Counted from the first letter of the stretch, positions 88-22,756 are shown. The stretch is DNA of 64,000 bases from a virus (IMGVR_UViG_3300042914_003231:1-64000); one strand, 5' to 3'. Notes: generated by a model from the sequence alone, not told the origin. A program made the numbers and translations.

Positions 88-318
88 TCACACTTTTTTT
101 TCTTCGGTTGTATTCCCATCTCCTTCGTTTTTACCTATATTTTTTTTACTTATTAACAATCCATTACCGAATGACTTGTTTAGGATAACAACTGTTGATC
201 TTACCTGAGTCAGATCGTTTTCTTGTTTTGCTAGAGCCTTCAGTATTTCTTCCTCCATTGGAGTCTCTGGACATATTAATAGGGATACTCCTTCGTTGCA
301 GATTGTTTCTACTCTCAT
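88..318 (-). CDS. hypothetical protein, 76 aa; overlaps the 3' end of 164..718 in another frame
   Basis: ORF track. The sequence looks natural (MRVETICNEGVSLLICPETPMEEEILKALAK). Its ATG lies inside the upstream ORF. Confidence 0.4.
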   Translation of the reverse strand: MRVETICNEGVSLLICPETPMEEEILKALAKQENDLTQVRSTVVILNKSFGNGLLISKKNIGKNEGDGNTTEEKKV

Positions 319-718
319 GTGTAATAGTATTTAACTCATAGAAAACTTTAGGTAATACTTTTGTTTCAATGAGTTTGTCAATAATTTGTTTTTTTGTGAT
401 TTTTAGCATTTTGAAGCTCATGTTATTCACATACTCCGGGTCCCCAGCAATACCATAATGTTTTATAAAACATTTTGTTATTTCCATATCTGGAAACCAG
501 TTCATAAAGAATTTATTGGCCAGTATATTAACTATCTCTTGCTTCCACAGATTAATCACCTTCTGTGCTTTTTTGTAGAGTTTTATAACTCTTTGTTTTT
601 TTTCTAATGACATCTCTTGTAATTCTTTCTCTGAGTACACACTTAGGCCATAAAGGGCTCTGTTGTACAGAAAGTTTTGATGATCATTGTAATTGTTTTT
701 TTCATAATGTTTTTGCAT
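164..718 (-). CDS. hypothetical protein, 184 aa
   Basis: ORF track. The last ~50 aa, which overlap 88..318, are low-complexity and look like out-of-frame translation. Confidence 0.5.
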   Translation of the reverse strand: MQKHYEKNNYNDHQNFLYNRALYGLSVYSEKELQEMSLEKKQRVIKLYKKAQKVINLWKQEIVNILANKFFMNWFPDMEITKCFIKHYGIAGDPEYVNNMSFKMLKITKKQIIDKLIETKVLPKVFYELNTITHESRNNLQRRSIPINMSRDSNGGRNTEGSSKTRKRSDSGKINSCYPKQVIR

Positions 719-3421: not shown

Positions 3422-4755
3422 TAGAATGGTAATTCTGCAAAATCTGTTACTGGAGCCTTGTCTCCTAATGCACTTCTATAATCCAGTAAGTGCTGGGTGA
3501 TCATATCTCTCAATTCCTGTGGTGGATTGTGACCTTCTCTTCCATTACGGAAGCCTTGAAGTTGGTGCATGCGTAAGCTCTTACCTACTTCCAGAGTATA
3601 CCGGATATCCTTGTATACCATAGAGAATATACCACAGTCTCCATTGTTTATTCTGCTTGCATATGTTGCTACACAATGTTCTTGTTCAATACTTTCCTGA
3701 AGCAATCGCTTCTTGCTATCAACCTCTTCTACAGGTATAGCGAAGTCCTTGAACAGACCTTTGTAATTTTTGTGCATTTTCACATGCTTCACACCCTTTA
3801 AAATTCTTTCCCTGCTAAGCTTGCTGTGTTCATCTCGCATTCTCTTGTCTGAGGTGATCTTTAAGGAGAGCTTTTTGTCCAGCTCATAGTGGTCATTCAA
3901 CCAGTCTTCTACTAACCATGACAATTCATCCTTACCAAAGCACATCTCAGAGATGAGACAACCCAGACTATACTTACTTTTAGATCCTCCTGTAAGACCG
4001 TCTAAAAAAGATATGCGAGTCTCACGAGTCTCTTCAGCTTGTTTCTTTTCTTTTTCCAGGATAAACTGACAAACTCTGTTCATCTCTCCTGGATTCTGAA
4101 GTACTTTGCAAAGAACATCTAAACCCTTTATGCTTAACTTTTCAATAAGCAGTTTAGGTATCTTTACATTGTACATCTTCTCAATGACTTCAGCCTCATT
4201 TTTAGTGTTCATAAAGTTTCTGGTAAGAACTTTATCTAATACTGGCTGGTAGTCAATGTTAAGAACTGTTTTCAAGATCTGAGGACCATATGTATGAGGA
4301 ATGCGACCACCCTTCATTATTCTCGGGCCTCTGTATCTTCTGCTGGCTATGAACACATACAATTGTTTACTGTAACAAAAGATAGGATGGTTTTTCTTAA
4401 AAGGATAGAATCGGTTCTTTTTGTAAGCATAAGCATATCCATGCTCAAACTCGGCAATACTGATGCGATCTTTTTCTTTGTTGTAGAGTATAGAAAGAAC
4501 TGTTTTAACAGGCCTAGACCTATATCCATTGACTGCTTTCATGTATATCTCTGAGTCTGGTTCATGTTTCCAACCATGCTCTTTGAAATAGTTCTTACAG
4601 TACTCAATTGCTTTTAAGTTATCAGGAGAGGTCATGTCAAAGTAATAGGAGATGAATTGCTCATTCTCTATTACCTTAACCTCCCTTTCATCAGACTGTG
4701 GACGGTATAGATCCTTTACAGTCTCTATTATCCGGTTGAATATTTCTCTTTTCAT
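3421..4755 (-). CDS. PcfJ-like protein, 444 aa
   Basis: The C-terminal segment EQEHCVATYASRINNGDCGIFSMVYKDIRYTLEV...LQGFRNG resembles the PcfJ-family signature (HCV..Y...I..G). Assigned from memory, not searched. Confidence 0.55.
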   Translation of the reverse strand: MKREIFNRIIETVKDLYRPQSDEREVKVIENEQFISYYFDMTSPDNLKAIEYCKNYFKEHGWKHEPDSEIYMKAVNGYRSRPVKTVLSILYNKEKDRISIAEFEHGYAYAYKKNRFYPFKKNHPIFCYSKQLYVFIASRRYRGPRIMKGGRIPHTYGPQILKTVLNIDYQPVLDKVLTRNFMNTKNEAEVIEKMYNVKIPKLLIEKLSIKGLDVLCKVLQNPGEMNRVCQFILEKEKKQAEETRETRISFLDGLTGGSKSKYSLGCLISEMCFGKDELSWLVEDWLNDHYELDKKLSLKITSDKRMRDEHSKLSRERILKGVKHVKMHKNYKGLFKDFAIPVEEVDSKKRLLQESIEQEHCVATYASRINNGDCGIFSMVYKDIRYTLEVGKSLRMHQLQGFRNGREGHNPPQELRDMITQHLLDYRSALGDKAPVTDFAELPF

Positions 4756-6514: not shown

Positions 6515-6729
6515 TTTTCTTCTTCTTTTTTAGGGTTATTAATGTTTAAAATTTTCTGTAGCAATCTTACTATATACCATACATAGGCTACAACCATGAT
6601 GATATAAATTACAGTAGCCATTGAAAATAGTGGTATTGGGAAAAGAGGCCTTGAGATAAGCTCAAAGTAACTATCACTTGCTCCTATTACTACCATAGTA
6701 ACAAACAGGAATATGATCAGATTCTTCAT
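6511..6729 (-). CDS. small membrane protein, 72 aa, translationally coupled to the SPFH gene
   Basis: Two to three hydrophobic segments; 4-nt overlaps on both sides. Confidence 0.6.
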   Translation of the reverse strand: MKNLIIFLFVTMVVIGASDSYFELISRPLFPIPLFSMATVIYIIMVVAYVWYIVRLLQKILNINNPKKEEEK

Positions 6730-7112
6730 TCTTTAGGTCCTCCCATTCCACCACCTCCTAGTATTCTTACTATTGGGTGGTTCATTTGAGATCTCATGTC
6801 AGAAATCACATACATTACATAAGCTAACTCATTTGCGTGCTTGCAGAATGTAGATGCTTCTACCATTGCTGCGGTCAGTTTATCAGTTGCTATGAATGCT
6901 TTTCTTGCATAAGACTCAAGTTCGATAAGCCTTTCTTCAGTGATACCTAGAGCCTCAAATATTTTCTCTGAGTCAGGATTGATACATTTAACATGAAGAT
7001 GTTCGGCCTTATCTACTGTACTTACATCCATCAATGTGATAGATACTTTTGTTCTTTTTACAGGAGCTTTTTTCTTTGCCGGAGCTTTTTTCTTTGTAGG
7101 TGTTTTTGCCAT
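6726..7112 (-). CDS. protein with a histone-H1-like basic N-terminus, 128 aa
   Basis: MAKTPTKKKAPAKKKAPVKRTK...; ends ILGGGGMGGPKE. Confidence 0.65.
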   Translation of the reverse strand: MAKTPTKKKAPAKKKAPVKRTKVSITLMDVSTVDKAEHLHVKCINPDSEKIFEALGITEERLIELESYARKAFIATDKLTAAMVEASTFCKHANELAYVMYVISDMRSQMNHPIVRILGGGGMGGPKE

Positions 7113-11576: not shown

Positions 11577-11642
11577 GACTAATGGTTTTAGTAGTTAAAC
11601 AATGGGATGATATGGTATAGGCTCTATGAGAGCTCGTGTTAG

Positions 11643-11858
11643 TTAGTAATTATCAGCCATAGAAGCTAGTATAAGTATTGCACCAATGACTATTAGTATG
11701 ATGGCCAGTGGGAAACATAAGTTCCACCAGCTTAATACAGCTATGGTGACTAGCATAACTCTTGGTTTGATTTCGGTGGCGGTCTCTATATCATATAGAA
11801 TACCTGCTATTATACCTATAAGAGATAGAATAGCAATTGTTAAAATGATCTTGTCCAT
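11643..11858 (-). CDS. small two-TM membrane protein, 71 aa
   Basis: ORF track; almost entirely hydrophobic. Confidence 0.6.
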   Translation of the reverse strand: MDKIILTIAILSLIGIIAGILYDIETATEIKPRVMLVTIAVLSWWNLCFPLAIILIVIGAILILASMADNY

Positions 11859-12171
11859 GGTTTATAGGTTTAAATGGTTATACAATAAGAGCTGAGTCAG
11901 CCTCGGTTAATATCTTTAAAGCTGTGGTGATCCTTTCCTACCTATATAAGGATATAGTAATAGGTATAGATATAGAGATAGTAGTATATAGGGTAATATC
12001 TTTAAGCAAGTAAACCTATTAGGTTTATTAGCTATATGGTGCACGCTCGCCTAAAGGGTGATTGAGGGCTTATTGATCATGGTATCAAAGTGTTGTAGGG
12101 AGTTCACCCCACCTCATGCACACTCTTTTCTTACACATTATCAACTAGTTAGCTGGTTTTTTGTTTGCTTT

Positions 12172-14158: not shown

Positions 14159-14902
14159 ATGAAAAAAAGTACAATATGGGTTATTGTGGGACTGATAGGA
14201 GTCTTGCTTATTACCCTGGCTTGGATTATGATTTATTCTAAGCCTAAACCTATTCCGGATATAAAAAATGGAGTAACCTATCATAAGATTTATAATCATA
14301 CTAAGGATTCGGTATTGGTATGGGTTACTTTGGGGGCAACCCCGGGGTGTCTGCAGGATGTGACTAAGATACCTTTTGTTACTTCTGGATCAGGGTTAGT
14401 AGGATCCTTCTACCTAGCAGCTGGTGATTCTACTATTTGGTATGCACCGGACTCAGTTGGATTCAATGGAGTATTTAGCTTTAATTATCAGCCAGATAAC
14501 TGCCCAGCTCCTACGTATCCTAACGGTATTAACCAGTATGAGTTTATAGTGAACAATGCATTCCAAGCAGGACAACCTCAAGAGAGTATCAATATCTCAT
14601 GTGTTCATGGGGTGAACTGTGTTATTCGTGTAGATATAATTACTAGTAATCCATTTAATGCCGGCTCTAAAGTTCCTGTTGTGGAAAGCTTTGCTAATAC
14701 ACTTGATCGGAATCAACTTGGTATCCCTGGTGTATACCCGTATGCGTGCACACATTGTACAGACTACATAGGAGCCCCCGGCTGTATCTCTACTCCTCAG
14801 CCTGTTTCTAAAGAACAAATCTGCCAGGTACAAAGACCAGCTAACCAATCAGGAGGAATGATAAAAGTTATATATTTAGGAAATGAAGAACCTGCAAAAT
14901 AA
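14159..14902 (+). CDS. membrane-anchored or secreted Cys-containing protein, possibly thaumatin-like fold, 247 aa
   Basis: N-terminal TM segment. The segment NQYEFIVNN...ESINISCVHGVNCVIRV resembles the thaumatin T.AEF.L...D.YDVSLVDGFN.P pattern. The ATG at 14159 is preferred over the track's TTG at 14141. Confidence 0.6.
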   Translation: MKKSTIWVIVGLIGVLLITLAWIMIYSKPKPIPDIKNGVTYHKIYNHTKDSVLVWVTLGATPGCLQDVTKIPFVTSGSGLVGSFYLAAGDSTIWYAPDSVGFNGVFSFNYQPDNCPAPTYPNGINQYEFIVNNAFQAGQPQESINISCVHGVNCVIRVDIITSNPFNAGSKVPVVESFANTLDRNQLGIPGVYPYACTHCTDYIGAPGCISTPQPVSKEQICQVQRPANQSGGMIKVIYLGNEEPAK

Positions 14903-14903
14903 A

Positions 14904-14935
14904 TTTGCATAATTAAAAAAACTATATTATATTTG
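14904..14935 (+). promoter_or_regulatory. promoter: TTTG (-33) N20 TATATTTG (-7)
   Basis: TTTG at 14904-14907 and TATATTTG at 14928-14935. Same spacing as the promoter at 16511-16542. Confidence 0.6.
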
Positions 14936-14939
14936 TAAC

Positions 14940-15011
14940 ATGAAACTGTTTTTCTTATCGTTTAGTTGTTTATGGTATCTCTCACAAGGAGGCAGCCCGG
15001 GCATTTCATGA
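14940..15011 (+). CDS. leader ORF 1, 23 codons: MKLFFLSFSCLWYLSQGGSPGIS
   Basis: ATG lies 4 nt after the -7 box. Residues 3-15 use only F, L, S, C, W and Y, the amino acids of the next 8 tRNAs. A terminator follows 36 nt after the stop. Confidence 0.5.
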   Translation: MKLFFLSFSCLWYLSQGGSPGIS

Positions 15012-15047
15012 TAGGTTTTTCATAGTTAAACATGATTAATTGACAAA

Positions 15048-15079
15048 ATCCCTGGGCTGATTACCCGGGGATTTTTTTT
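15048..15079 (+). terminator. intrinsic terminator immediately before tRNA-Phe
   Basis: 9-bp stem ATCCCTGGG/CCCGGGGAT with a 7-nt loop and T8. Confidence 0.8.
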
Positions 15080-15151
15080 GGACTCATAGCTCAGTAGGTA
15101 GAGCGCAGGACTGAAAATCCTGCCGCACTGGTTCGATTCCAGTTGAGTCCA
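15080..15151 (+). tRNA. tRNA-Phe (GAA)
   Basis: Acceptor GGACTCA/TGAGTCC; D GCTC/GAGC; anticodon arm CAGGA-CTGAAAA-TCCTG; T arm ACTGG-TTCGATT-CCAGT. Confidence 0.92.
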
Positions 15152-15156
15152 CACAA

Positions 15157-15239
15157 GCCGACACTGTAGAGTGGGAGATCTACACCAGACTGTAAATCTG
15201 GAGTCTTAGACTTTGGGAGTTCGAATCTCTCTGGCGGCA
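15157..15239 (+). tRNA. tRNA-Tyr (GTA), long variable arm
   Basis: Acceptor GCCGACA/TGGCGGC (one mismatch); arm CCAGA-CTGTAAA-TCTGG; T arm GGGAG-TTCGAAT-CTCTC. Confidence 0.85.
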
Positions 15240-15244
15240 CAAAA

Positions 15245-15330
15245 GGAAGGTTGGCAGAGCCTGGCCGATTGCACCAGTCTTGAAAACTGGAGGTCCCTTG
15301 GATCCGTGAGTTCGAATCTCACACCTTCCT
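15245..15330 (+). tRNA. tRNA-Ser (TGA)
   Basis: Acceptor GGAAGGT/ACCTTCC; arm CCAGT-CTTGAAA-ACTGG; long variable arm; T arm GTGAG-TTCGAAT-CTCAC. Confidence 0.9.
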
Positions 15331-15390
15331 CAACATGCATAGAAAAATGCACTTTTCTATACATGTTTTTTGAAAGTGCATAAAAACTAT

Positions 15391-15431
15391 ACATCTCTAG
15401 CTCAACTGGCGGAGCAGCGGTCTCCAAAACC
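15391..15431 (+). pseudogene. truncated tRNA-Trp-like 5' portion (acceptor 5' strand to anticodon loop only)
   Basis: D arm GCTC-AACTGGCG-GAGC and loop CTCCAAA. Shares the 13-mer GGTCTCCAAAACC with the intact tRNA-Trp (15419-15431 versus 15834-15846). No T arm and no 3' acceptor complement. Confidence 0.6.
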
Positions 15432-15464
15432 ATAAAGCAGTTTGGATACTGAAGTAAAAACATG

Positions 15465-15472
15465 TATATTTG
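15465..15472 (+). promoter_or_regulatory. -7 box TATATTTG, 3 nt before ATG 15476
   Basis: Matches TAnnTTTG. Confidence 0.45.
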
Positions 15473-15475
15473 TAC

Positions 15476-15817
15476 ATGCCTTCAAAAAATAAAGAAATAC
15501 TAAAAAAGCATAGAGATGCTTGGTATAAAAAGAATAAAAAAAAACAGATTACTAACCAGCTTGAAAAAAGACAGGAATTAAAGAAATGGTTTCAGGAATA
15601 TAAGAGATCATTATCTTGTAAAGAGTGTGGATTTAGCTTTGAATTATTTCCAGAATGTTGTGATTTCCATCACAGAGATGGAGATACAAAGAAAGATGTA
15701 GTAAGCAGATTGCTACCAATGGGAATAAAAGCACTAAAGAAAGAGATTGAAAAATGTGATCCTCTTTGTGCTAATTGTCATAGAAAGCTCCATGCAAAAT
15801 TAGAATATACAGGTTAG
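15476..15817 (+). CDS. HNH homing endonuclease (free-standing, inside the tRNA array)
   Basis: CKECG...CCDFHHRDGDTKKD...CDPLCANCHRKLH is an HNH/zinc-finger motif. The stop codon lies inside the tRNA-Trp 5' end. Confidence 0.8.
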   Translation: MPSKNKEILKKHRDAWYKKNKKKQITNQLEKRQELKKWFQEYKRSLSCKECGFSFELFPECCDFHHRDGDTKKDVVSRLLPMGIKALKKEIEKCDPLCANCHRKLHAKLEYTG

Positions 15818-15880
15818 CTTATTGGAAGCACCAGGTCTCCAAAACCTCGGATGGAAGGAGTTCGATTCTCTTAACCTGTG
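15809..15880 (+). tRNA. tRNA-Trp (CCA)
   Basis: Acceptor ACAGGTT/AACCTGT; D GCTT/AAGC; loop CTCCAAA; T arm AGGAG-TTCGATT-CTCTT. Confidence 0.85.
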
Positions 15881-15885
15881 CACAA

Positions 15886-15957
15886 GGTACCGTGGGTGAG
15901 GGGTTTAGCCTCAGGTCTGCAAAACCTGCTACGTCTGTTCGAATCAGACCGGTACCT
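15886..15957 (+). tRNA. tRNA-Cys (GCA)
   Basis: Acceptor GGTACCG/CGGTACC; arm CAGGT-CTGCAAA-ACCTG; T arm GTCTG-TTCGAAT-CAGAC. Confidence 0.92.
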
Positions 15958-15958
15958 C

Positions 15959-16174
15959 ATGAAAGAGATAGATGAAGAGTTCAACTTACTTCAGTTGTAC
16001 ATCTATGATTGCATCAACCGGATGTGTTTGAATGCATACATAGATAAGACTAAGTGTTCTCATCACCCTTTGTATACTTTTGAAGAATACAAAACGGCAA
16101 TATGGGATCCTTGGACTGGAGAGACTGTAGCAAGTAGAACAAGATGGGCTTTAAATATTAAGCCTTTATTTTAG
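15959..16174 (+). CDS. hypothetical protein, 71 aa, flush between tRNA-Cys and tRNA-Ser
   Basis: The ATG lies 2 nt after the tRNA-Cys discriminator. The stop TAG (16172-16174) overlaps the tRNA-Ser start (16173). The track ORF 15878.. was trimmed to the first ATG outside the tRNA. Confidence 0.5.
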   Translation: MKEIDEEFNLLQLYIYDCINRMCLNAYIDKTKCSHHPLYTFEEYKTAIWDPWTGETVASRTRWALNIKPLF

Positions 16175-16257
16175 AGAAGTGGCTGAGTGGCTTAAGGCAC
16201 CGCACTGCTAACGCGGAGGATGTAACAGTTCCACCGGTTCGAATCCGGTCTTCTCTG
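16173..16257 (+). tRNA. tRNA-Ser (GCT)
   Basis: Acceptor AGAGAAG/CTTCTCT; loop CTGCTAA; long variable arm; T arm ACCGG-TTCGAAT-CCGGT. Confidence 0.88.
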
Positions 16258-16262
16258 CAAAT

Positions 16263-16343
16263 GCCCATATGGTGGAATGGTAGACGCGCTGGTCTTAGGA
16301 ACCAGTACCGTAAGGTATGTAGGTTCGAGTCCTACTATGGGTA
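16263..16343 (+). tRNA. tRNA-Leu (TAG)
   Basis: Acceptor GCCCATA/TATGGGT; arm CTGGT-CTTAGGA-ACCAG; long variable arm; T arm GTAGG-TTCGAGT-CCTAC. Confidence 0.9.
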
Positions 16344-16348
16344 CATAT

Positions 16349-16431
16349 ACTCCTGTGGTGTAATTGGTAGCCGCGCTAGGCTTAAGACTCAGTGGACTTA
16401 GTCCGTGCCGGTTCGAGTCCGGCCAGGAGTA
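16349..16431 (+). tRNA. tRNA-Leu (TAA)
   Basis: Acceptor ACTCCTG/CAGGAGT; loop CTTAAGA (weak anticodon stem); variable stem GGACT/AGTCC; T arm GCCGG-TTCGAGT-CCGGC. Confidence 0.8.
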
Positions 16432-16474
16432 CTTTGCTCACCTGATTAATAAAGTGACCAAAAATTATTACACT

Positions 16475-16520
16475 GTCTACCAATCAGTTAGACCTTCTGA
16501 AGAAAATATTTTTGGTAGAC
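16475..16520 (+). other. 9-bp stem-loop at the end of tRNA block 1
   Basis: GTCTACCAA (16475-16483) pairs with TTGGTAGAC (16512-16520). The 3' arm overlaps the -33 TTTG of the next promoter. Confidence 0.5.
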
Positions 16521-16542
16521 TCAAACAAACCTATTATATTTG
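16511..16542 (+). promoter_or_regulatory. promoter: TTTG (-33) N20 TATATTTG (-7)
   Basis: TTTG at 16511-16514 and TATATTTG at 16535-16542. Confidence 0.6.
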
Positions 16543-16550
16543 TCTTGCAA

Positions 16551-16652
16551 ATGAAACGCATACAACATATCCAGATGGCCAATACAGGCAGAAATACGGT
16601 GGAGATTAAAGATCCGACCGTGTCCATGGGTGTTGCATGTAGTTTTAGATAA
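16551..16652 (+). CDS. leader ORF 2, 33 codons: MKRIQHIQMANTGRNTVEIKDPTVSMGVACSFR
   Basis: ATG lies 8 nt after the -7 box. Residues 2-24 use only the 14 amino acids served by the 16 downstream tRNAs, and all 14 occur. A terminator follows 28 nt after the stop. Confidence 0.5.
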   Translation: MKRIQHIQMANTGRNTVEIKDPTVSMGVACSFR

Positions 16653-16680
16653 GACATTTTTAGTTAGCTAAACCGCATTA

Positions 16681-16710
16681 AACCCCTGGACAAGTTCTAG
16701 GGGTTTTTTG
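16681..16710 (+). terminator. intrinsic terminator immediately before tRNA-Pro
   Basis: Stem (AA)CCCCTGG/CTAGGGG(TT) with a 7-nt loop and T6. Confidence 0.8.
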
Positions 16711-16718
16711 TTTTACCC

Positions 16719-16791
16719 CGGGATGTAGATCAGTTGGTAGATTGCGTGCTTTGGGAGCATGAGGTCGCAGGTTCGAGCCCTGTCATCCCGA
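16719..16791 (+). tRNA. tRNA-Pro (TGG)
   Basis: Acceptor CGGGATG/CATCCCG; arm CGTGC-TTTGGGA-GCATG; T arm GCAGG-TTCGAGC-CCTGT. Confidence 0.9.
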
Positions 16792-16847
16792 CTAGCAGAA
16801 GTGGTACTCCAGTGCCCGTACTGAAAACCAAACAAAACTGGAGACAT

Positions 16848-16920
16848 GGGGTTCAAGCACAAGCGGACGTGCATTAGCTTTGCAAGCTAGAGGATCTCGG
16901 TTCGAGGCCGAGGAGCTCCA
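16848..16920 (+). tRNA. tRNA-Ala (TGC)
   Basis: Acceptor GGGGTTC/GAGCTCC with a G3:U70 pair; D GCAC/GTGC; arm TTAGC-TTTGCAA-GCTAG; T arm CTCGG-TTCGAGG-CCGAG. Confidence 0.88.
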
Positions 16921-16921
16921 C

Positions 16922-17083
16922 ATGAATGAAGAACTATATAATTGGCTGGAGAAGATGTTTATGTTCTCCAATATCCCTAAGTACAGGAAGTACTTTAAGG
17001 AATGGGTGGACAACATAACTGAAGATCAGATCACCGGTTTTCAGAGAATGATGGGAGCCAACTATAAGATTAAGCAGGAATAG
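16922..17083 (+). CDS. hypothetical protein, 53 aa, flush between tRNA-Ala and tRNA-Gly
   Basis: The ATG lies 2 nt after the tRNA-Ala discriminator. The stop TAG (17081-17083) lies inside tRNA-Gly, which starts at 17074. Confidence 0.5.
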   Translation: MNEELYNWLEKMFMFSNIPKYRKYFKEWVDNITEDQITGFQRMMGANYKIKQE

Positions 17084-17148
17084 CTCATCCTTGGTAGAGC
17101 TCCAGTCTTCCAAACTGGAGGTGGCGAGTTCGAGCCTCGCTTCCTGCT
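17074..17148 (+). tRNA. tRNA-Gly (TCC)
   Basis: Acceptor GCAGGAA/TTCCTGC; arm CCAGT-CTTCCAA-ACTGG; T arm GCGAG-TTCGAGC-CTCGC. Confidence 0.92.
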
Positions 17149-17331
17149 CACAACTGCAGTGCCCATGTACAGTGGGGGTACAATCACTGCAGGTAGAAGA
17201 GTGCTAAGAAATCCGGTGTTGGGTTAGCTCTGGACACTAAGGTAAGGAGTGGGTAAGGACCACAGTCCCCGTCTAACAGGGACAAAGTTTTGCAAAAGCC
17301 TTCCCTGGGATGGAGCACTCTTCATGATATT
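17149..17331 (+). ncRNA. structured non-tRNA spacer RNA (unknown family)
   Basis: 8-bp hairpin CTGCAGTG/CACTGCAG (17154-17192). 10-bp long-range helix GAAGAGTGCT (17196-17205) with AGCACTCTTC (17314-17323). Inner hairpin GTCCC...GGGAC. GC-enriched; no cloverleaf. Confidence 0.4.
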
Positions 17332-17407
17332 GGTCTGTTAGGGGAGTCCGGCCGTCCCTACCTCACTGTCTATGAGGGGATCACGGGTTCGAATCCCGTA
17401 CAGACCG
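17332..17407 (+). tRNA. tRNA-Asp (GTC)
   Basis: Acceptor GGTCTGT/ACAGACC; arm CCTCA-CTGTCTA-TGAGG; T arm ACGGG-TTCGAAT-CCCGT. Position 37 is an unusual T. Confidence 0.78.
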
Positions 17408-17518
17408 CTGGGCGGTAGTCTAATGAGCAGGGTTAGTAGCGTGCTGACTAACTAGTCTTAGGACGATCATCTTATGGGATGATAGATATCAGTAACCATT
17501 CTGATCTGCCCCACCAAT
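17408..17518 (+). ncRNA. second structured non-tRNA spacer (unknown)
   Basis: Hairpins ATCATC-ttatgg-GATGAT and ATCAG-taaccatt-CTGAT; ends ...CTGCCCCACCA; repeated TAGTCT(A/T)A. Confidence 0.3.
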
Positions 17519-17590
17519 TGCCCCTTAGCTCAGCGGTAGAGCAAAACCCTGTTAAGGTTGAGGTCCTAGGTTCAATCCCTAGAGGGGCAG
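17519..17590 (+). tRNA. tRNA-Asn (GTT)
   Basis: Acceptor TGCCCCT/AGGGGCA; loop CTGTTAA; T arm CTAGG-TTCAATC-CCTAG. Confidence 0.9.
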
Positions 17591-17595
17591 CAAAT

Positions 17596-17670
17596 AGACG
17601 AGTAGCTCAGCCTGGTTAGAGCGCCCGCCTGATACGCGGAGGGTCACAGGTTCAAATCCTGTCTTGTCTA
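17596..17670 (+). tRNA. tRNA-Ile (GAT)
   Basis: Acceptor AGACGAG/CTTGTCT; loop CTGATAC; T arm ACAGG-TTCAAAT-CCTGT. Confidence 0.88.
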
Positions 17671-17727
17671 CTTTGGGACCGTTTGGTAGTGACATAGTCT
17701 TGAACTAGATCATAGAAACTATCACAT

Positions 17728-17800
17728 AGGAGTATAGCTCAGTTGGGAGAGCATCCGGTTTACATCCGGACGGTCCAAGGTTCGAGTCCTTGTATTCCTA
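17728..17800 (+). tRNA. tRNA-Val (TAC)
   Basis: Acceptor AGGAGTA/TATTCCT; arm TCCGG-TTTACAT-CCGGA; T arm CAAGG-TTCGAGT-CCTTG. Confidence 0.9.
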
Positions 17801-17884
17801 CAAACTTTAAAGATTTAAACTTATAATGTTTACACTATTAAAATATAAGGTTATAAAGAGAAGGATAAAACCTTAACTCATTAT

Positions 17885-17956
17885 TCCCTCATAGCTTAGT
17901 GGTAAAGCAGTATACTTTTAATATACGGAGCGGCAGTTCGATTCTGCCTGGGGGAA
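17885..17956 (+). tRNA. tRNA-Lys (TTT)
   Basis: Acceptor TCCCTCA/TGGGGGA; arm GTATA-CTTTTAA-TATAC; T arm GGCAG-TTCGATT-CTGCC. Confidence 0.9.
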
Positions 17957-17962
17957 CTTTAA

Positions 17963-18034
17963 ACCCCCGTAGCTCAATGGAAGAGTAAGAGACTTCTAAG
18001 CTCAAGGTTACCAGTTCGAGTCTGGTCGGGGGTT
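17963..18034 (+). tRNA. tRNA-Arg (TCT)
   Basis: Acceptor ACCCCCG/CGGGGGT; loop CTTCTAA (short GAG/CTC stem); T arm ACCAG-TTCGAGT-CTGGT. Confidence 0.82.
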
Positions 18035-18040
18035 CTGAAT

Positions 18041-18114
18041 AGGCCCTTAGCTCAGTTGGTTAGAGCAGTACTCTTATAAGGTAAAGGTCACCGGTTCAAA
18101 CCCGGTAGGGCCTA
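18041..18114 (+). tRNA. tRNA-Ile (TAT), reads ATA
   Basis: Acceptor AGGCCCT/AGGGCCT; loop CTTATAA; T arm ACCGG-TTCAAAC-CCGGT. Confidence 0.85.
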
Positions 18115-18124
18115 CATAATATTT

Positions 18125-18199
18125 AGCGGGGTGACTGGAGTTGGTTCCAGCACAGCCTCATAAACTGTACAGACGCGGGTTCGAGTCCCGCCCCCGCTA
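18125..18199 (+). tRNA. tRNA-Met (CAT), elongator-like
   Basis: Acceptor AGCGGGG/CCCCGCT; loop CTCATAA; T arm GCGGG-TTCGAGT-CCCGC. No 3xG:C initiator signature in the anticodon stem. Confidence 0.85.
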
Positions 18200-18265
18200 C
18201 AATGAGTGCTAATGACACCTGATAAAGGAGGGGATATATTACCAGGTCCCCCGACACTCAGTAAC

Positions 18266-18337
18266 GCTCCCATCATCTAGGGGTCAGGATATCAGGTTTT
18301 CGACCTGAGCACCAGGGTTCGAATCCCTGTGGGAGTA
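18266..18337 (+). tRNA. tRNA-Glu (TTC)
   Basis: Acceptor GCTCCCA/TGGGAGT; arm TCAGG-TTTTCGA-CCTGA; T arm CAGGG-TTCGAAT-CCCTG. Confidence 0.9.
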
Positions 18338-18342
18338 CTTAA

Positions 18343-18415
18343 GCTTGAGTAGCACAATTGGTAGTGCACCTCCCTTGTAAGGAGAAGGTTGTCAGTTCGA
18401 GTCTGACCTCAAGCT
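18343..18415 (+). tRNA. tRNA-Thr (TGT)
   Basis: Acceptor GCTTGAG/CTCAAGC; D GCAC/GTGC; loop CTTGTAA; T arm GTCAG-TTCGAGT-CTGAC. Confidence 0.9.
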
Positions 18416-18417
18416 CT

Positions 18418-18491
18418 GTGTCTGTAGAGGAATTGGTAGACTCCCCGGAATGTGGATCCGGTGCTTGTGGGTTCAAGTCCCATCAGACACC
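18418..18491 (+). tRNA. tRNA-His (GTG)
   Basis: Acceptor GTGTCTG/CAGACAC; arm CCGGA-ATGTGGA-TCCGG; T arm GTGGG-TTCAAGT-CCCAT. The only tRNA followed by an encoded CCA. Base -1 is T, not G. Confidence 0.88.
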
Positions 18492-18497
18492 CCATTA

Positions 18498-18571
18498 GTT
18501 CTCATAGCTCAATTGGATAGAGTCCTTGACTACGGATCAAGAGGTTGAAGGTTCGACTCCTTCTGAGAACA
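18498..18571 (+). tRNA. tRNA-Arg (ACG)
   Basis: Acceptor GTTCTCA/TGAGAAC; arm CTTGA-CTACGGA-TCAAG; T arm GAAGG-TTCGACT-CCTTC. Confidence 0.92.
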
Positions 18572-18576
18572 CATAA

Positions 18577-18647
18577 TGCCCTTTCGTCTAACGGCAGGAC
18601 CTGTGGTTTTGGGCCACATGATCGAGGTTCGAATCCTTGAGGGGCAA
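18577..18647 (+). tRNA. tRNA-Gln (TTG)
   Basis: Acceptor TGCCCTT/AGGGGCA; arm TGTGG-TTTTGGG-CCACA; T arm CGAGG-TTCGAAT-CCTTG. Followed by a T-run. Confidence 0.9.
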
Positions 18648-18680
18648 CTAGTTTTTTATTGTTTGCACATCCAAAGTTTT

Positions 18681-18692
18681 TTTGTATATTAG
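18681..18692 (+). promoter_or_regulatory. candidate late-promoter box TTTGTATATTAG
   Basis: An identical 13-mer TTTTGTATATTAG recurs at 44670-44682, upstream of another structural gene. Confidence 0.4.
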
Positions 18693-18716
18693 CAATAATT
18701 TTCATATATTATTAAT

Positions 18717-19607
18717 ATGGATGTAGTAAACTTTGATGCTCTCAAAGCACAGGGCAAAATTATAAAAATATCAGATGTGAATCCTGATGAGGATTACTTC
18801 ATCATTGGTCATTATGATCCGCGAAGAAGAGAATTTAAAGCTACTGATTACCCTATCTATGCTATAAAAGCACGTGATGTTTTAAATTCTTCAAATGCTT
18901 TTAATAATCCTTTTGATTTCTATTTAGATGGTAATGCTCCTGCAGGAGGGGATGGCTCAGCAAGTAATCCTTTTAATTTATTTTCTCAAGCCGTTGCCTA
19001 TATTAATACACTTCCTTCAGCAACATATACTCTATATGTATTGCCGTACAGTTATACAGAATCATCCCCGGTTATTAATCTACCAAACAATTCTGCTCTA
19101 AATATAATAGGAGTAGTAGCTAATTCTTGTAGCTTTAATTTTAATGTACAATTTACCGCAATACCAGCTTCCTCATATGCTGTATGGTATGAAAATATTG
19201 CTTTTAGTAATTTTGAACTAGATCTTTCTTTAGCATCTTTTGCTTCTATATCCTTTACAGGTTCTAAGGTAGATCTTATAAGAACAGATTCTAATCCTTC
19301 TACTATAGTGACATTACAAGGTGCAATGTTTGCCTCTACCCTTTCCGGTAGAGTTTTATGGTTAAATGGTGTAATGTTTGGTGATATTAATGTTCAAACA
19401 AATGGTGAGTTGTTTTGTAATACGGTATTACAACTACAAGGACAATTTAAGTTAACAGGATCTGCTAAGTTAAAAACTTTAAGTATGCCAAACCCTACAC
19501 CTAATGGTGTAGATGGTATTCCTGTAGGTTTGAATATACCGGTTTGGAGAACTGATGCTGCAAGTGATGAAACTTTTACAGGAACTCTTACAAAAATAAT
19601 ATATTAA
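18717..19607 (+). CDS. tail fibre or receptor-binding protein, 296 aa
   Basis: The N-terminal ~55 aa are paralogous to 19610..20287 (ALKAQGKIIKISD...DYFIIGHY versus LIAQGKILKASE...DYLIIGKY). First gene after the tRNA array. Confidence 0.55.
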   Translation: MDVVNFDALKAQGKIIKISDVNPDEDYFIIGHYDPRRREFKATDYPIYAIKARDVLNSSNAFNNPFDFYLDGNAPAGGDGSASNPFNLFSQAVAYINTLPSATYTLYVLPYSYTESSPVINLPNNSALNIIGVVANSCSFNFNVQFTAIPASSYAVWYENIAFSNFELDLSLASFASISFTGSKVDLIRTDSNPSTIVTLQGAMFASTLSGRVLWLNGVMFGDINVQTNGELFCNTVLQLQGQFKLTGSAKLKTLSMPNPTPNGVDGIPVGLNIPVWRTDAASDETFTGTLTKIIY

Positions 19608-21364: not shown

Positions 21365-22756
21365 ATGGCAATATTATTAAGTGATAATTTACAAAACAAT
21401 AGTCCAAAACCTTTAGATGCAAAATATCTAAATGGAGTTACTCCTTGGGCATCTGTTGCTGCAGCTAATGCCGGTATAGCTCTTACTGAAAGATCTATAG
21501 GTTTAACAGTTAATATAAACAATGTAGAATATTGGTATGCTGCAGGAATCACTAATAGTGATCTTGTTATTAAATCAGGAGGTTCTGGATCACTACCAAT
21601 TGTAAGATATGTATATCTAGTACAAGATGCTTCTGATGCAACTAAAATGGGTGGTACTTTAAACAACGTGTATACTACATTTCAATCAGCTTATAATGCT
21701 GCAAATGTTTTACAAGTGTCGTTGGGAGGCTCTAATATTGTTGTTGTTCAAGTAGGAAATATTACAGCAGCTGCTGCTGGAGATTTAACATTAACCAGTA
21801 ATTATAATAGATTTGTGCAGTTTTCTGGAATAAGTATTGTTTCTTCTGTATTAGGAAATATAATTGCAACAAATTCTTCTGGAAATGGGTATACTGTAGG
21901 TAACGGTACCTTACAACCAGTTTTTTTTACTAATATAAGAATAGGAAACATAAATACAAACGCTACCGGCATTAGTGGTAATTCTGGAAATGTTTCTTTA
22001 AGAGTTAATAGTGTTCAGGTTGGAAACATAGATACTTCAATAACAAACGTAACTAACACAACAGGAAATGGAGGTTCTTTCACTTATAATGTAAATACAA
22101 ATAATTTTGCTGTTTTCGGAAATATAACTACATCAAGTCAAGGTTCTCTTAGTAGTGCTGGAAGTGTAAGCATATCATCTTCTAATTTTGTTTTTTCTAA
22201 CATAACTACTAGCAACGGAAATCAAGGTGGAGTAATCTCAATAGATGCTTCTTCTGGAAGATTTTTAGGAACTTCAATAACTATAAATACTACAAGTACA
22301 GTAAGTGCTAATATATTGACTTTGAGAAATGGAAATGTTAATAATATAAATGTAACAAGTGATAAAAATATAAACATTACAAATTGCACTTTAATATCAG
22401 CAACTTTCTCTAATTCAATAATTCAAAATACTTTAAATATAGTCAGTTCAATTATTAGTGGAGTTTTAACAACTAATCCTTTAACAAAATCAATAATTAA
22501 ATTATCTTCTTTGTCTAATATTATTAATTTAGGAGATGATTCTTTTATTGTAAATACTGTAGTTGATTTTCAAAATACAGTTACACCTGCTATAAACGGA
22601 ATAGGTTCAAACTGTACAATAGTAAATTCATCTATATTAGGTGGTAGTTTAAGTATAGATAATAGCACTCCTCAAATAGTTCAAATAAGCGGAGTATCTT
22701 CAACTCCATTAATTTATATTCAAAACACAATAGGAGTAAATATAACCTTAGCTTAA
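21365..22756 (+). CDS. beta-helix-like tail fibre or spike, 463 aa
   Basis: Long run of degenerate Asn/Ile/Thr/Ser/Gly repeats (GNINTNATGISGNSGNVSL, VGNIDTSITNVTNTTGNGG, FGNITTSSQGS...). Confidence 0.55.
   Translation: MAILLSDNLQNNSPKPLDAKYLNGVTPWASVAAANAGIALTERSIGLTVNINNVEYWYAAGITNSDLVIKSGGSGSLPIVRYVYLVQDASDATKMGGTLNNVYTTFQSAYNAANVLQVSLGGSNIVVVQVGNITAAAAGDLTLTSNYNRFVQFSGISIVSSVLGNIIATNSSGNGYTVGNGTLQPVFFTNIRIGNINTNATGISGNSGNVSLRVNSVQVGNIDTSITNVTNTTGNGGSFTYNVNTNNFAVFGNITTSSQGSLSSAGSVSISSSNFVFSNITTSNGNQGGVISIDASSGRFLGTSITINTTSTVSANILTLRNGNVNNINVTSDKNINITNCTLISATFSNSIIQNTLNIVSSIISGVLTTNPLTKSIIKLSSLSNIINLGDDSFIVNTVVDFQNTVTPAINGIGSNCTIVNSSILGGSLSIDNSTPQIVQISGVSSTPLIYIQNTIGVNITLA

Follow-up and report, generated by a model that had tools for sequence, protein, structure and literature searches.

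A conserved structured RNA and a tRNA-like cloverleaf occupy the spacers flanking tRNA-Asp in the tRNA array of an uncultured phage

Ever since T4, phage tRNA clusters have been recognized as sites of structured non-tRNA RNAs; the T4 record annotates rnaC and rnaD (the species 1 and species 2 RNAs) as small, stable RNAs. The role of these two RNAs is unknown (PMC3014915). The theta ribozymes are minimal HDV-like ribozymes that lie within 5 nt of phage tRNAs in uncultured phages and have a proposed role in tRNA processing; their matches are mostly beside tRNA-Met, suppressor tRNA, and tRNA-Leu (PMC10879173). One of the arrays retrieved here (L022) carries ROOL, an OLE-like RNA, and tmRNA among its tRNA genes. 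Some riboswitch aptamers (e.g., the purine and cobalamin classes) have a multi-helix junction with a loop-loop lock. Here we describe two candidate RNAs, RNA 1 and RNA 2, in the spacers on either side of tRNA-Asp in a phage tRNA array, and compare them with these systems.

The sequence analyzed (the window) is a 64,000-nt stretch of an uncultured phage (IMGVR_UViG_3300042914_003231:1-64000) with a G+C content of 36.7% (0.367). The large terminase, portal, and major head proteins have distant matches in crAss-like and Flavobacterium/Cellulophaga phage families, the large terminase being ∼24% identical, and we therefore infer a Bacteroidota host. Twenty-four tRNA genes covering all 20 amino acids are encoded on the + strand between 15080 and 18648, with ARAGORN and Rfam in agreement. 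In all of the array tRNAs the discriminator is followed by a C and the CCA is not encoded; the gap that follows is mostly ∼4 AT-rich nt. The original prediction for this region, made from the sequence alone, was that most spacers are 2 to 10 nt, and this is so for 13 of the 23 inter-tRNA spacers (1 to 9 AT-rich nt) but not for the remaining ten, which span 55 to 477 nt. Several of these long spacers are, like the two described below, conserved elements or ORFs, and a homing-endonuclease gene is also present in the array. The Ala-Gly spacer contains a small ORF (16922-17083; MNEELYNW...) with 16 homologues. A near-identical copy of the same phage (L003; 4 differences in 21 kb) carries the array, and the nearest phages identified through a 463-aa protein coded at 21365-22756 (L001, L002, and L004-L014) have no tRNA array whatever. 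The array is specific to one lineage.

tRNA-Asp(GUC) (17332 to 17408, + strand; 49.7 bits with Rfam) is separated by 182 nt from tRNA-Gly(UCC) upstream (17074 to 17149, + strand) and by 110 nt from tRNA-Asn(GUU) downstream (17519 to 17591, + strand), using the ARAGORN ends of these three tRNAs, all of which are also called by Rfam; the predicted spacer lengths of 183 and 111 nt hold if the post-discriminator C is counted. Both spacers are GC enriched as proposed, with a G+C content of 0.49 for the Gly-Asp spacer and 0.45 for the Asp-Asn spacer, compared with 0.367 for the window and 0 to 0.25 for the short spacers. Neither a sigma-70-like promoter nor an intrinsic terminator was found between 17000 and 17600, and the nearest terminator-like site is at 16680-16706, directly before tRNA-Pro. 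The absence of an ORF also stands, as only mechanical ORFs of 38 to 46 aa overlap the spacers and the substitutions among homologues are compensatory, not codon-like.

Both spacers contain structured RNAs that are unrecognized by any tRNA finder or Rfam model. Scanning with the Rfam covariance models matches neither spacer to a family, at gathering thresholds or even at E ≤ 10, and searches of Rfam 15 at E ≤ 5 to 10 with 17100-17560, 14900-18750, and the RNA 1 homologues of contigs L046 and L047 return only tRNAs and noise. ARAGORN with introns, low thresholds, and tmRNA and mitochondrial modes gives only implausible calls on the two spacers, and neither contains a tRNA-Ala-like domain with a tag frame (ARAGORN, Rfam), as expected of tmRNA; the sole ARAGORN call in relaxed mode is an implausible antisense construct across tRNA-Asp. 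YrlA (RF02553) has no match on either spacer. We note that the only weak YrlA match (25 bits, threshold 69) is on tRNA-Arg and tRNA-Ile at 17982-18097. The best explanation is that the two spacers are two unrelated RNA genes within a single tRNA operon.

The predicted fold of the Gly-Asp spacer has a free energy of -70.5 kcal/mol (z = -4.3), a stability matched by 0 of 200 dinucleotide shuffles. RNA 1 (17154-17323, + strand) has two parts, a 5' hairpin that is variable (P0) and a core domain of 128 nt (17196 to 17323, + strand; 95.6 bits with the covariance model R1, below). All coordinates and sequences given in the original prediction are correct, and each helix that it named is present. Its 8-bp hairpin, in which CTGCAGTG at 17154-61 is the perfect complement of 17185-92, is the outer stem of P0 (17154 to 17192, + strand) and surrounds an inner stem-loop. 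Its long-range helix, in which GAAGAGTGCT at 17196-205 is the perfect complement of AGCACTCTTC at 17314-323, is P1 of the core; a perfect 10-bp helix arises in 2 of 300 mononucleotide shuffles of the spacer. Window P0 begins 4 nt after the C trailing the tRNA-Gly discriminator, which is the exact expected start of the next tRNA under the array layout.

Within P1, the core has, all on the + strand, P2 (17211-14/17308-11), hairpin A (17215-20/17233-38, loop 17221-32), P3 (17244-47/17299-302), hairpin B (17249-52/17260-63, with a 7-nt loop at 17253-59), hairpin C (17265-69/17279-83, loop 17270-78), and a conserved single strand, GTTTTGCAAAAG (17284-98). The segment GTTAG of loop A (17223 to 17227, + strand) is the 5' side of a loop-loop (kissing) pairing whose 3' side is the segment CTAAC of loop C (17273 to 17277, + strand). 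An AT-rich linker, ATGATATT (17324 to 17331, + strand), connects P1 to the start of tRNA-Asp.

Homologues of RNA 1 are present in seven further phage contigs, from metagenomes of different samples, representing six distinct sequences (loci L032, L043/L039, L046, L047, L058, L059, and L066-68). These were found via tRNA anchors, a degenerate motif pattern, and homologues of the neighboring small ORF. The 3' half of tRNA-Gly(UCC), which is identical among the syntenic arrays, served as the search anchor that identified the IMG/VR contig L032 and the JGI contigs L043 and L039, with the same array gene order as the window; a motif derived from the first alignment identified L046, which is syntenic, and L047, which has another array order and no common flanking genes; and homologues of the small ORF at 16922-17083 identified L058, L059, and L066-68. 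R1, a covariance model derived from five sequences, scores the homologues at 66.8 to 105.9 bits, including the later-found L058 (96 bits), L059 (75 bits, cut by the contig end), and L066 (67 bits), none of which was in the build. Searching ∼440 kb of fetched loci with R1, T4 included, yielded nothing else credible.

Other searches delimit this distribution. Nothing was found in IMG/VR with an exact RNA 1 21-mer, the downstream 296-aa protein, or a tRNA-Asn anchor, and sixteen arrays with a common tRNA-Asp 3' half (L015-L030) contain RNA 1 in no case and RNA 2 in no case. There is no true RNA 1 match in GTDB genomes or GenBank phages; blastn against the latter with the window region and with the RNA 1 of L046 and L047 gave tRNA matches only, or none. 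Several candidates were set aside. The ∼210-nt insert that follows tRNA-Gly in L015, L021, L024, and L027 is unmatched by R1 and represents a different element, the motif-pattern matches in GTDB genomes (L048-L057) and in IMG/VR L045 are chance occurrences in other sequence, and a weak R1 match in L020/L023 (19.7 bits) has z = +0.9, no better than shuffles, and is coding-like on inspection. No protein consistently co-occurs with RNA 1 as a partner, and the upstream small ORF, considered for that part, is absent from L032 and L047. RNA 1 is real and conserved, with no match in Rfam, in GenBank phages, or to T4 rnaC and rnaD.

One architecture is common to all eight RNA 1 sequences. The P0 position is occupied in every one by a hairpin of unrelated sequence that starts 2 to 4 nt past the upstream tRNA (in L047, 9 nt into the folded segment) and ends 0 to 3 nt before P1. 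P1 is 9 to 10 bp with a purine-rich 5' strand, and is followed by an A-rich joiner and the 4-bp P2; its strands are GGAAAAATAT/GTATTTTTCC in L032, GAAAGACAGA/TCTGTCTTTC in L043, GGAAGATAGA/TCTATCTTCC in L046, TGAGAAGTG/CACTTCTCA in L047, and GAGAGATAAT/GTTATCTCTC in L066. Hairpin A has 5 to 6 bp and a 12-nt loop with G-W-TAG, P3 has 4 to 8 bp followed by an invariant A, hairpin B has 4 bp and a 7-nt loop that is mostly TTAAAGG, and hairpin C has 5 bp and a 9-nt loop with CTAWC. A single strand of 14 to 16 nt then carries the conserved run TTTGYAAAAGC (variant in L059 and L066), after which come the 3' strands of P3, P2, and P1. A T-box-like Asp specifier was considered and rejected, as GAC is in loop C of only some members.

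Conservation and covariation among relatives are clear for RNA 1 and more modest for RNA 2. The main RNA 1 alignment (A10) comprises eight sequences hand-registered to the structure, with L043 and L058 identical in P1 and hairpin A. Standard pairs account for 99.4% of its 316 pair cells, and in 34 of the 42 pairs both partners have changed in a compensatory way. These values were not attained in any of 500 column shuffles, and pairing is 35 to 46% when the 3' partners are slid by 1 to 3 columns. Because A10 was fitted to the structure, we added a run of RNAalifold on a plain MAFFT alignment, which recovered P2, A, P3, B, and C and showed compensatory changes in 25 of its 31 pairs. The loop-loop contact between A and C is paired in 97.5% of cells, as GTTAG/CTAAC in the window, L046, L058, and L059 and as GATAG/CTATC in L032, L047, and L066, with one mismatch in L043; its second pair is T-A in four sequences and A-T in three. 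A second contact, in which loop B may form 3 bp with the U-run of the single strand, is proposed tentatively: the pairing is possible in all eight sequences, and we grade it so because there is one change event (A-T to G-C in L066). G-U pairs are frequent in the RNA 1 helices, and the RNA is therefore assigned to the + strand. Overall, RNA 1 is best explained as a compactly folded RNA of an undescribed family.

RNA 2 is of another kind. The Asp-Asn spacer folded alone has z = -1.9, with 7 of 200 shuffles equally stable. The claim that neither RNA folds as a cloverleaf is right for RNA 1, but RNA 2 (17409 to 17516, + strand) does fold as one, as does its homologue in L058, and the layout of RNA 2 is that of a tRNA-derived body. 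Positions 1 and 72 are mismatched (U17409/C17512), and there follow, all on the + strand, a 6-bp acceptor stem (GGGCGG/CTGCCC; 17410-15/17506-11), T8-A9 (17416-17), and a 4-bp D stem (GTCT/GGAC; 17418-21/17461-64) around a 39-nt expansion with the conserved D-loop motifs AATGAG (17422-27) and GCTGA (17443-47). G26 precedes the anticodon-position arm (17466-83; 6 bp, 6-nt loop TTATGG), and a 4-nt variable region precedes the T-position arm (17488-92/17501-05; 5 bp, 8-nt loop). The tail (17512-16) is the mismatched C17512 and then A-CCA, with A73 and an encoded CCA. The spacer thus ends in CTGCCCCACCA (17506-17516), as predicted, with 2 nt of AT before tRNA-Asn; read as CTGCCCC-A-C and then CAAT, the tail fits the array layout of discriminator and C. 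The cloverleaf-constrained fold is within 0.2 kcal/mol (≤0.2) of the minimum free energy.

The L058 homologue is 111 nt long and takes the same cloverleaf in an unconstrained fold, with a 7-nt anticodon-position loop without U33 and a near-canonical T arm (GCAGG-TGCGAGT-CCTGT, compared with GCAGGTTCGAGCCCTGT in the tRNA-Pro arm of the window). The two sequences are identical at 54 of 106 aligned positions. All 20 of their pairs are intact, and of the 14 pairs outside the acceptor stem, 8 are changed on both sides, in the three other stems; the acceptor stem, CACCA tail, TA, AATGAG, and GCTGA are 100% identical. A model built from these two sequences (R2) aligns genuine tRNAs full-length, the best being tRNA-Pro at 36.2 and 31.5 bits, and RF00005 has no match on RNA 2 at E ≤ 10. 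The slot itself is variable among relatives, with only 4 nt in L046, an unrelated 51-nt element in L043, and in L032 and L066 a common 84- to 85-nt element that has a canonical T arm and reads as a circularly permuted tRNA body. RNA 2 is absent or replaced in these close relatives, with L058 providing the one homologue, and is therefore dispensable there. The pairing of the two RNAs in the original prediction is not borne out by this comparison, RNA 1 being conserved and fixed to tRNA-Asp and the RNA 2 slot being variable. RNA 2 is thus a tRNA derivative selected for its shape and acceptor end, not its anticodon, and decoding ability is unlikely because the canonical anticodon and T loops are lost.

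Taking together the sequence, fold, conservation, covariation, strand, and fixed position observed, we consider it about an even prospect that tRNA-processing enzymes excise the two RNAs from the tRNA precursor and that they then act in trans as stable folded RNAs. Both would be cotranscribed with the array tRNAs. RNA 1 would be freed by 3' trimming of tRNA-Gly and an RNase P cut at tRNA-Asp, and RNA 2 by RNase P at its own acceptor stem, with its CCA already encoded; RNase P cleavage at the 5' end of tRNA-Asn and 3' processing of tRNA-Asp would also take part in the release. The terminal helices of the two RNAs may then shield them from exonucleases, and the RNA 1 core is predicted to be locked by the A-C loop pairing, possibly also by the 3-bp pairing of loop B with the U-run. 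Both RNAs would presumably bind a protein or small ligand rather than decode.

For RNA 1, the chief competing explanation is a 5' leader that acts in cis on tRNA-Asp, influences its transcription, folding, or RNase P processing, and may respond to a ligand in the manner of a riboswitch or dock onto the tRNA; we regard this as possible, if somewhat doubtful. In each of the seven complete loci, 7 to 10 AT-rich nt separate the end of RNA 1 from tRNA-Asp(GUC), and the link holds in L047, where array order and flanking genes are unrelated and the upstream neighbor is not tRNA-Gly; the RNA 1-tRNA-Asp unit therefore moves or persists together while its upstream neighbor changes. Such strict adjacency fits action in cis at least as well as in trans, and the multi-helix junction, loop-loop lock, and long conserved single strands are typical aptamer traits. 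However, no expression platform is evident, with no terminator or alternative tRNA pairing seen on inspection, and the linker sequence is not conserved. Moreover, the linked tRNA-Asp genes differ widely, with no feature seen among them that tracks RNA 1, inspection revealed no conserved GAC specifier or other tRNA-Asp complement, and no known riboswitch family in Rfam matches. A self-cleaving ribozyme of a new class, able to trim the tRNA precursor independently of RNase P and RNase Z, is very improbable. The theta ribozymes do provide a precedent for catalytic RNAs beside phage tRNAs (PMC10879173), and RNA 1 is complex for its size, has invariant unpaired nucleotides, and occupies the entire tRNA-to-tRNA gap. 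But its nested P1, P2, and P3 and A-C loop-loop contact, all supported by covariation, are not the HDV nested double pseudoknot, its invariant positions lack hammerhead core motifs, Rfam ribozyme families give no match even at E ≤ 10, and neither RNA 1 boundary has a conserved cleavage-site mark. Interpretation of RNA 1, RNA 2, or the Met-Glu spacer as an HDV-like or hammerhead ribozyme was likewise discarded, the topology being wrong and the core motifs missing.

For RNA 2, the alternative is a decaying tRNA pseudogene, a duplicate (perhaps tRNA-Pro-like) with a D-loop insertion that is now drifting. Its absence from L046 and the unrelated elements in its place in L043, L032, and L066 would fit such decay, as would its rejection by the Rfam tRNA model and ARAGORN, the noncanonical loops that differ between the window and L058, and the folding z of only -1.9. 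We nonetheless think it unlikely, since at ∼50% divergence all of the cloverleaf pairs are kept, with eight double compensatory changes, and the acceptor end and conserved motifs are unchanged, which argues for purifying selection on both the shape and the acceptor end and not drift. Lastly, both spacers could be chance G+C-rich filler with meaningless helices, in keeping with an RNA 2 single-sequence fold only marginally above shuffles. This is scarcely credible: RNA 1 is conserved and covaries among phage contigs of different samples, which refutes the idea for that RNA, and RNA 2 covaries with L058.

The structural constraint on RNA 1, whose 128-nt fold is compact, with covariation in six helices and in the loop-loop contact, and whose position is always directly before tRNA-Asp, is of a type that usually marks specific binding or catalysis, and its carriers are phages distantly related to crAss-like phages. 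In RNA 2, the phage seems to keep a tRNA body and acceptor end and to give up decoding features. This is relevant because tRNAs are now recognized as targets of bacterial defense systems and phage tRNAs as countermeasures (PMC10264068, PMC11464382, PMC11555353). A more specific and rather improbable proposal is that RNA 1 is a new tRNA-dedicated class of RNA (a ligand-sensing aptamer, or a catalytic or chaperone module, governing tRNA-Asp maturation) and RNA 2 a molecule shaped like a tRNA that uses its conserved acceptor end to engage, as a decoy or substrate, a host enzyme or a tRNA-targeting defense; if true, no riboswitch-like or ribozyme-like element known before RNA 1 would control a phage tRNA gene. 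Both RNAs are rare and found only in metagenomes.

Among the known systems, ROOL, GOLLD, OLE, and tmRNA resemble RNA 1 in being structured non-tRNA RNAs among phage tRNA genes, but they are 370 to 640 nt compared with 128 to 170 nt for RNA 1, show no homology to it, and belong to different families. Riboswitch aptamers share with RNA 1 a closing helix, a junction, mutually pairing hairpin loops, and invariant unpaired nucleotides; RNA 1 differs in having no family match, no visible expression platform, and a tRNA rather than an mRNA as the downstream gene. The theta ribozymes are, like RNA 1, small structured RNAs within ∼5 nt of a tRNA end, whereas RNA 1 is about twice as long, is upstream of tRNA-Asp, and is without the HDV nested double pseudoknot. 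On inspection, the RNA 1 topology could not be mapped onto the HDV helix order (P1, P1.1, P2, P3, and P4, with the catalytic C in J4/2), and no Rfam HDV family matches the spacers. RNA 2 compares most directly with canonical tRNA, having in order an acceptor stem, U8-A9, a 4-bp D stem, G26, an anticodon-position arm, a 4- to 5-nt variable region, a 5-bp T-position stem, A73, and CCA, and departing from it in the 39-nt D loop, 6-nt anticodon-position loop, 8-nt T loop, and U1-C72 mismatch.

The likeness to the stable RNAs of T4 that the original prediction drew holds as a description of kind but not as homology. Neither R1 nor R2 matches rnaC or rnaD (1409-1672 of the T4 locus, L031), the two T4 RNAs are in no Rfam family, and blastn and nhmmer with both spacers against the loci retrieved before L031 found nothing. 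The T4 RNAs are together at the cluster end after tRNA-Arg, unlike RNA 1 and RNA 2, and stable accumulation is on record, by annotation, for rnaC and rnaD only; RNA 1, unlike rnaC, is not tRNA-like and is tied to tRNA-Asp. As in T4, however, both RNAs are non-tRNA elements in a tRNA cluster, on the tRNA strand and a few nucleotides from a tRNA, and the T4 cluster, like the window array, contains a homing-endonuclease gene. T4 rnaC is also strongly structured (z = -4.6, compared with -4.3 for RNA 1) and is tRNA-like in the way that RNA 2 is, its 3' end comprising a canonical T arm and then a strand complementary to its own 5' end. RNA 1 is a second, independent, and better-constrained case, after T4, of a structured non-tRNA RNA in a phage tRNA cluster.

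The tRNA array of 24 genes (15080-18648, plus strand) is wholly missing from the closest protein-level relatives of the window phage (L001, L002, and L004-L014), which share 72 to 73% identity with it in the 463-aa protein encoded at 21365-22756, and contigs scattered more widely within this phage group do carry it. It follows that gain or loss of the array occurs en bloc at the strand-switch region, and that RNA 1, the structured RNA (17154-17323) upstream of tRNA-Asp, comes and goes with it.

Other spacers of the array also carry conserved elements. We note a second conserved small RNA between tRNA-Met and tRNA-Glu (18201-18265), with homologues in five metagenomic phage loci that have an RNA 1 homologue (L058 2531-2599; L046 2542-2594; L043 2944-2996, minus strand; L032 9076-9144; and L066 1969-2032). 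Its architecture is that of an H-type pseudoknot enclosed by a closing helix, in the order CCTG-ATAAA-(S2 5' strand)-ATATATTAC-CAGG-N-(S2 3' strand). CCTG/CAGG is without variation in the six sequences, and S2 covaries in all six, with the pairs GGGGA/TCCCC, GGGAGA/TCTCCC, GGAGG/CCTCC, GGTGG/CCACC, GCAGAGA/TCTCTGC, and GATGG/CCATC. This RNA has no match in Rfam, and its topology differs from that of HDV-like ribozymes.

A conserved element of ∼54 nt lies in the tRNA-Pro to tRNA-Ala spacer (window 16793-16847; L058 1202-1256; L046 1327-1380; and L043 4283-4335, minus strand), is nearly identical across these four arrays, and is not present in L032. It is ordered TAGCAGAA...CTCCAG-TGCC...ACTG-AAAA...AAAACTGGAGA, with a small hairpin enclosed by CTCCAG/CTGGAG pairing. 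The Val-Lys spacer (17802-17884) and its homologues are AT rich and contain a conserved block, ATGTTTACACTA, a possible promoter within the array; next comes a hairpin whose sequence varies.

tRNA-like elements occur in several of the related loci. The Asp-Asn spacers of L032 (8352-8435) and L066 (1116-1200) have in common an element of 84 to 85 nt whose layout suggests a circularly permuted tRNA body, with stem covariation between the two loci. The element opens with a closing stem where the anticodon stem would be, then a variable region of 4 to 5 nt and a T arm of canonical form (ATAGGTTCGAATCCTAT or GTGGGTTCGACTCCCAC); after these come an acceptor-like stem capped with GAAA, the dinucleotide TA, and a GG-containing D arm. 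In L047, an RNA 1 locus with a different array order, RNA 1 is preceded by two tRNA-like genes (300-455, minus strand), whose T arms, ATATGTTCGAATCATAT and GTAGGTTCGAATCCTAC, are canonical. Neither is called by ARAGORN; in one of them the D region is reduced and the extra arm is long.

Structured RNAs are also present in phage tRNA arrays that lack RNA 1. A separate family of arrays, with 20 to 26 tRNAs, carries a conserved insert of ∼210 nt immediately 3' of tRNA-Gly(UCC) (L015 1518-1734; L024 2569-2785, part of a 122-kb contig; L027 773-989; and L021 6776-6982), with a long-range closing helix and hairpins showing covariation. This insert is a different element from RNA 1, and it matches neither R1, the RNA 1 covariance model, nor any Rfam family at gathering level. 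On the minus strand of L022, a 136-kb IMG/VR phage contig, a ROOL RNA (3625-4261; 152 bits), a tmRNA (6634-7007), and an OLE-like RNA (11595-11987; 124 bits, truncated at the locus end) are scattered among 22 tRNA genes, one of which is called as tRNA-SeC.

The array also contains open reading frames. A conserved 53-aa ORF (MNEELYNWLEKMFMFSNIPKYRKYFKEWVDNITEDQ...; 16922-17083) in the tRNA-Ala to tRNA-Gly spacer extends into tRNA-Gly; it has no known domain, and has 16 metagenomic homologues, with all those checked being on tRNA-array contigs. The same slot in L032 is occupied by an HNH endonuclease in place of the 53-aa ORF. Between tRNA-Ser and tRNA-Trp, the window array has an ORF (15470-15817) whose product contains the HNH endonuclease motif CDFHHRD...CANCHRKLH, a parallel to the homing endonuclease gene segB in the T4 tRNA cluster.
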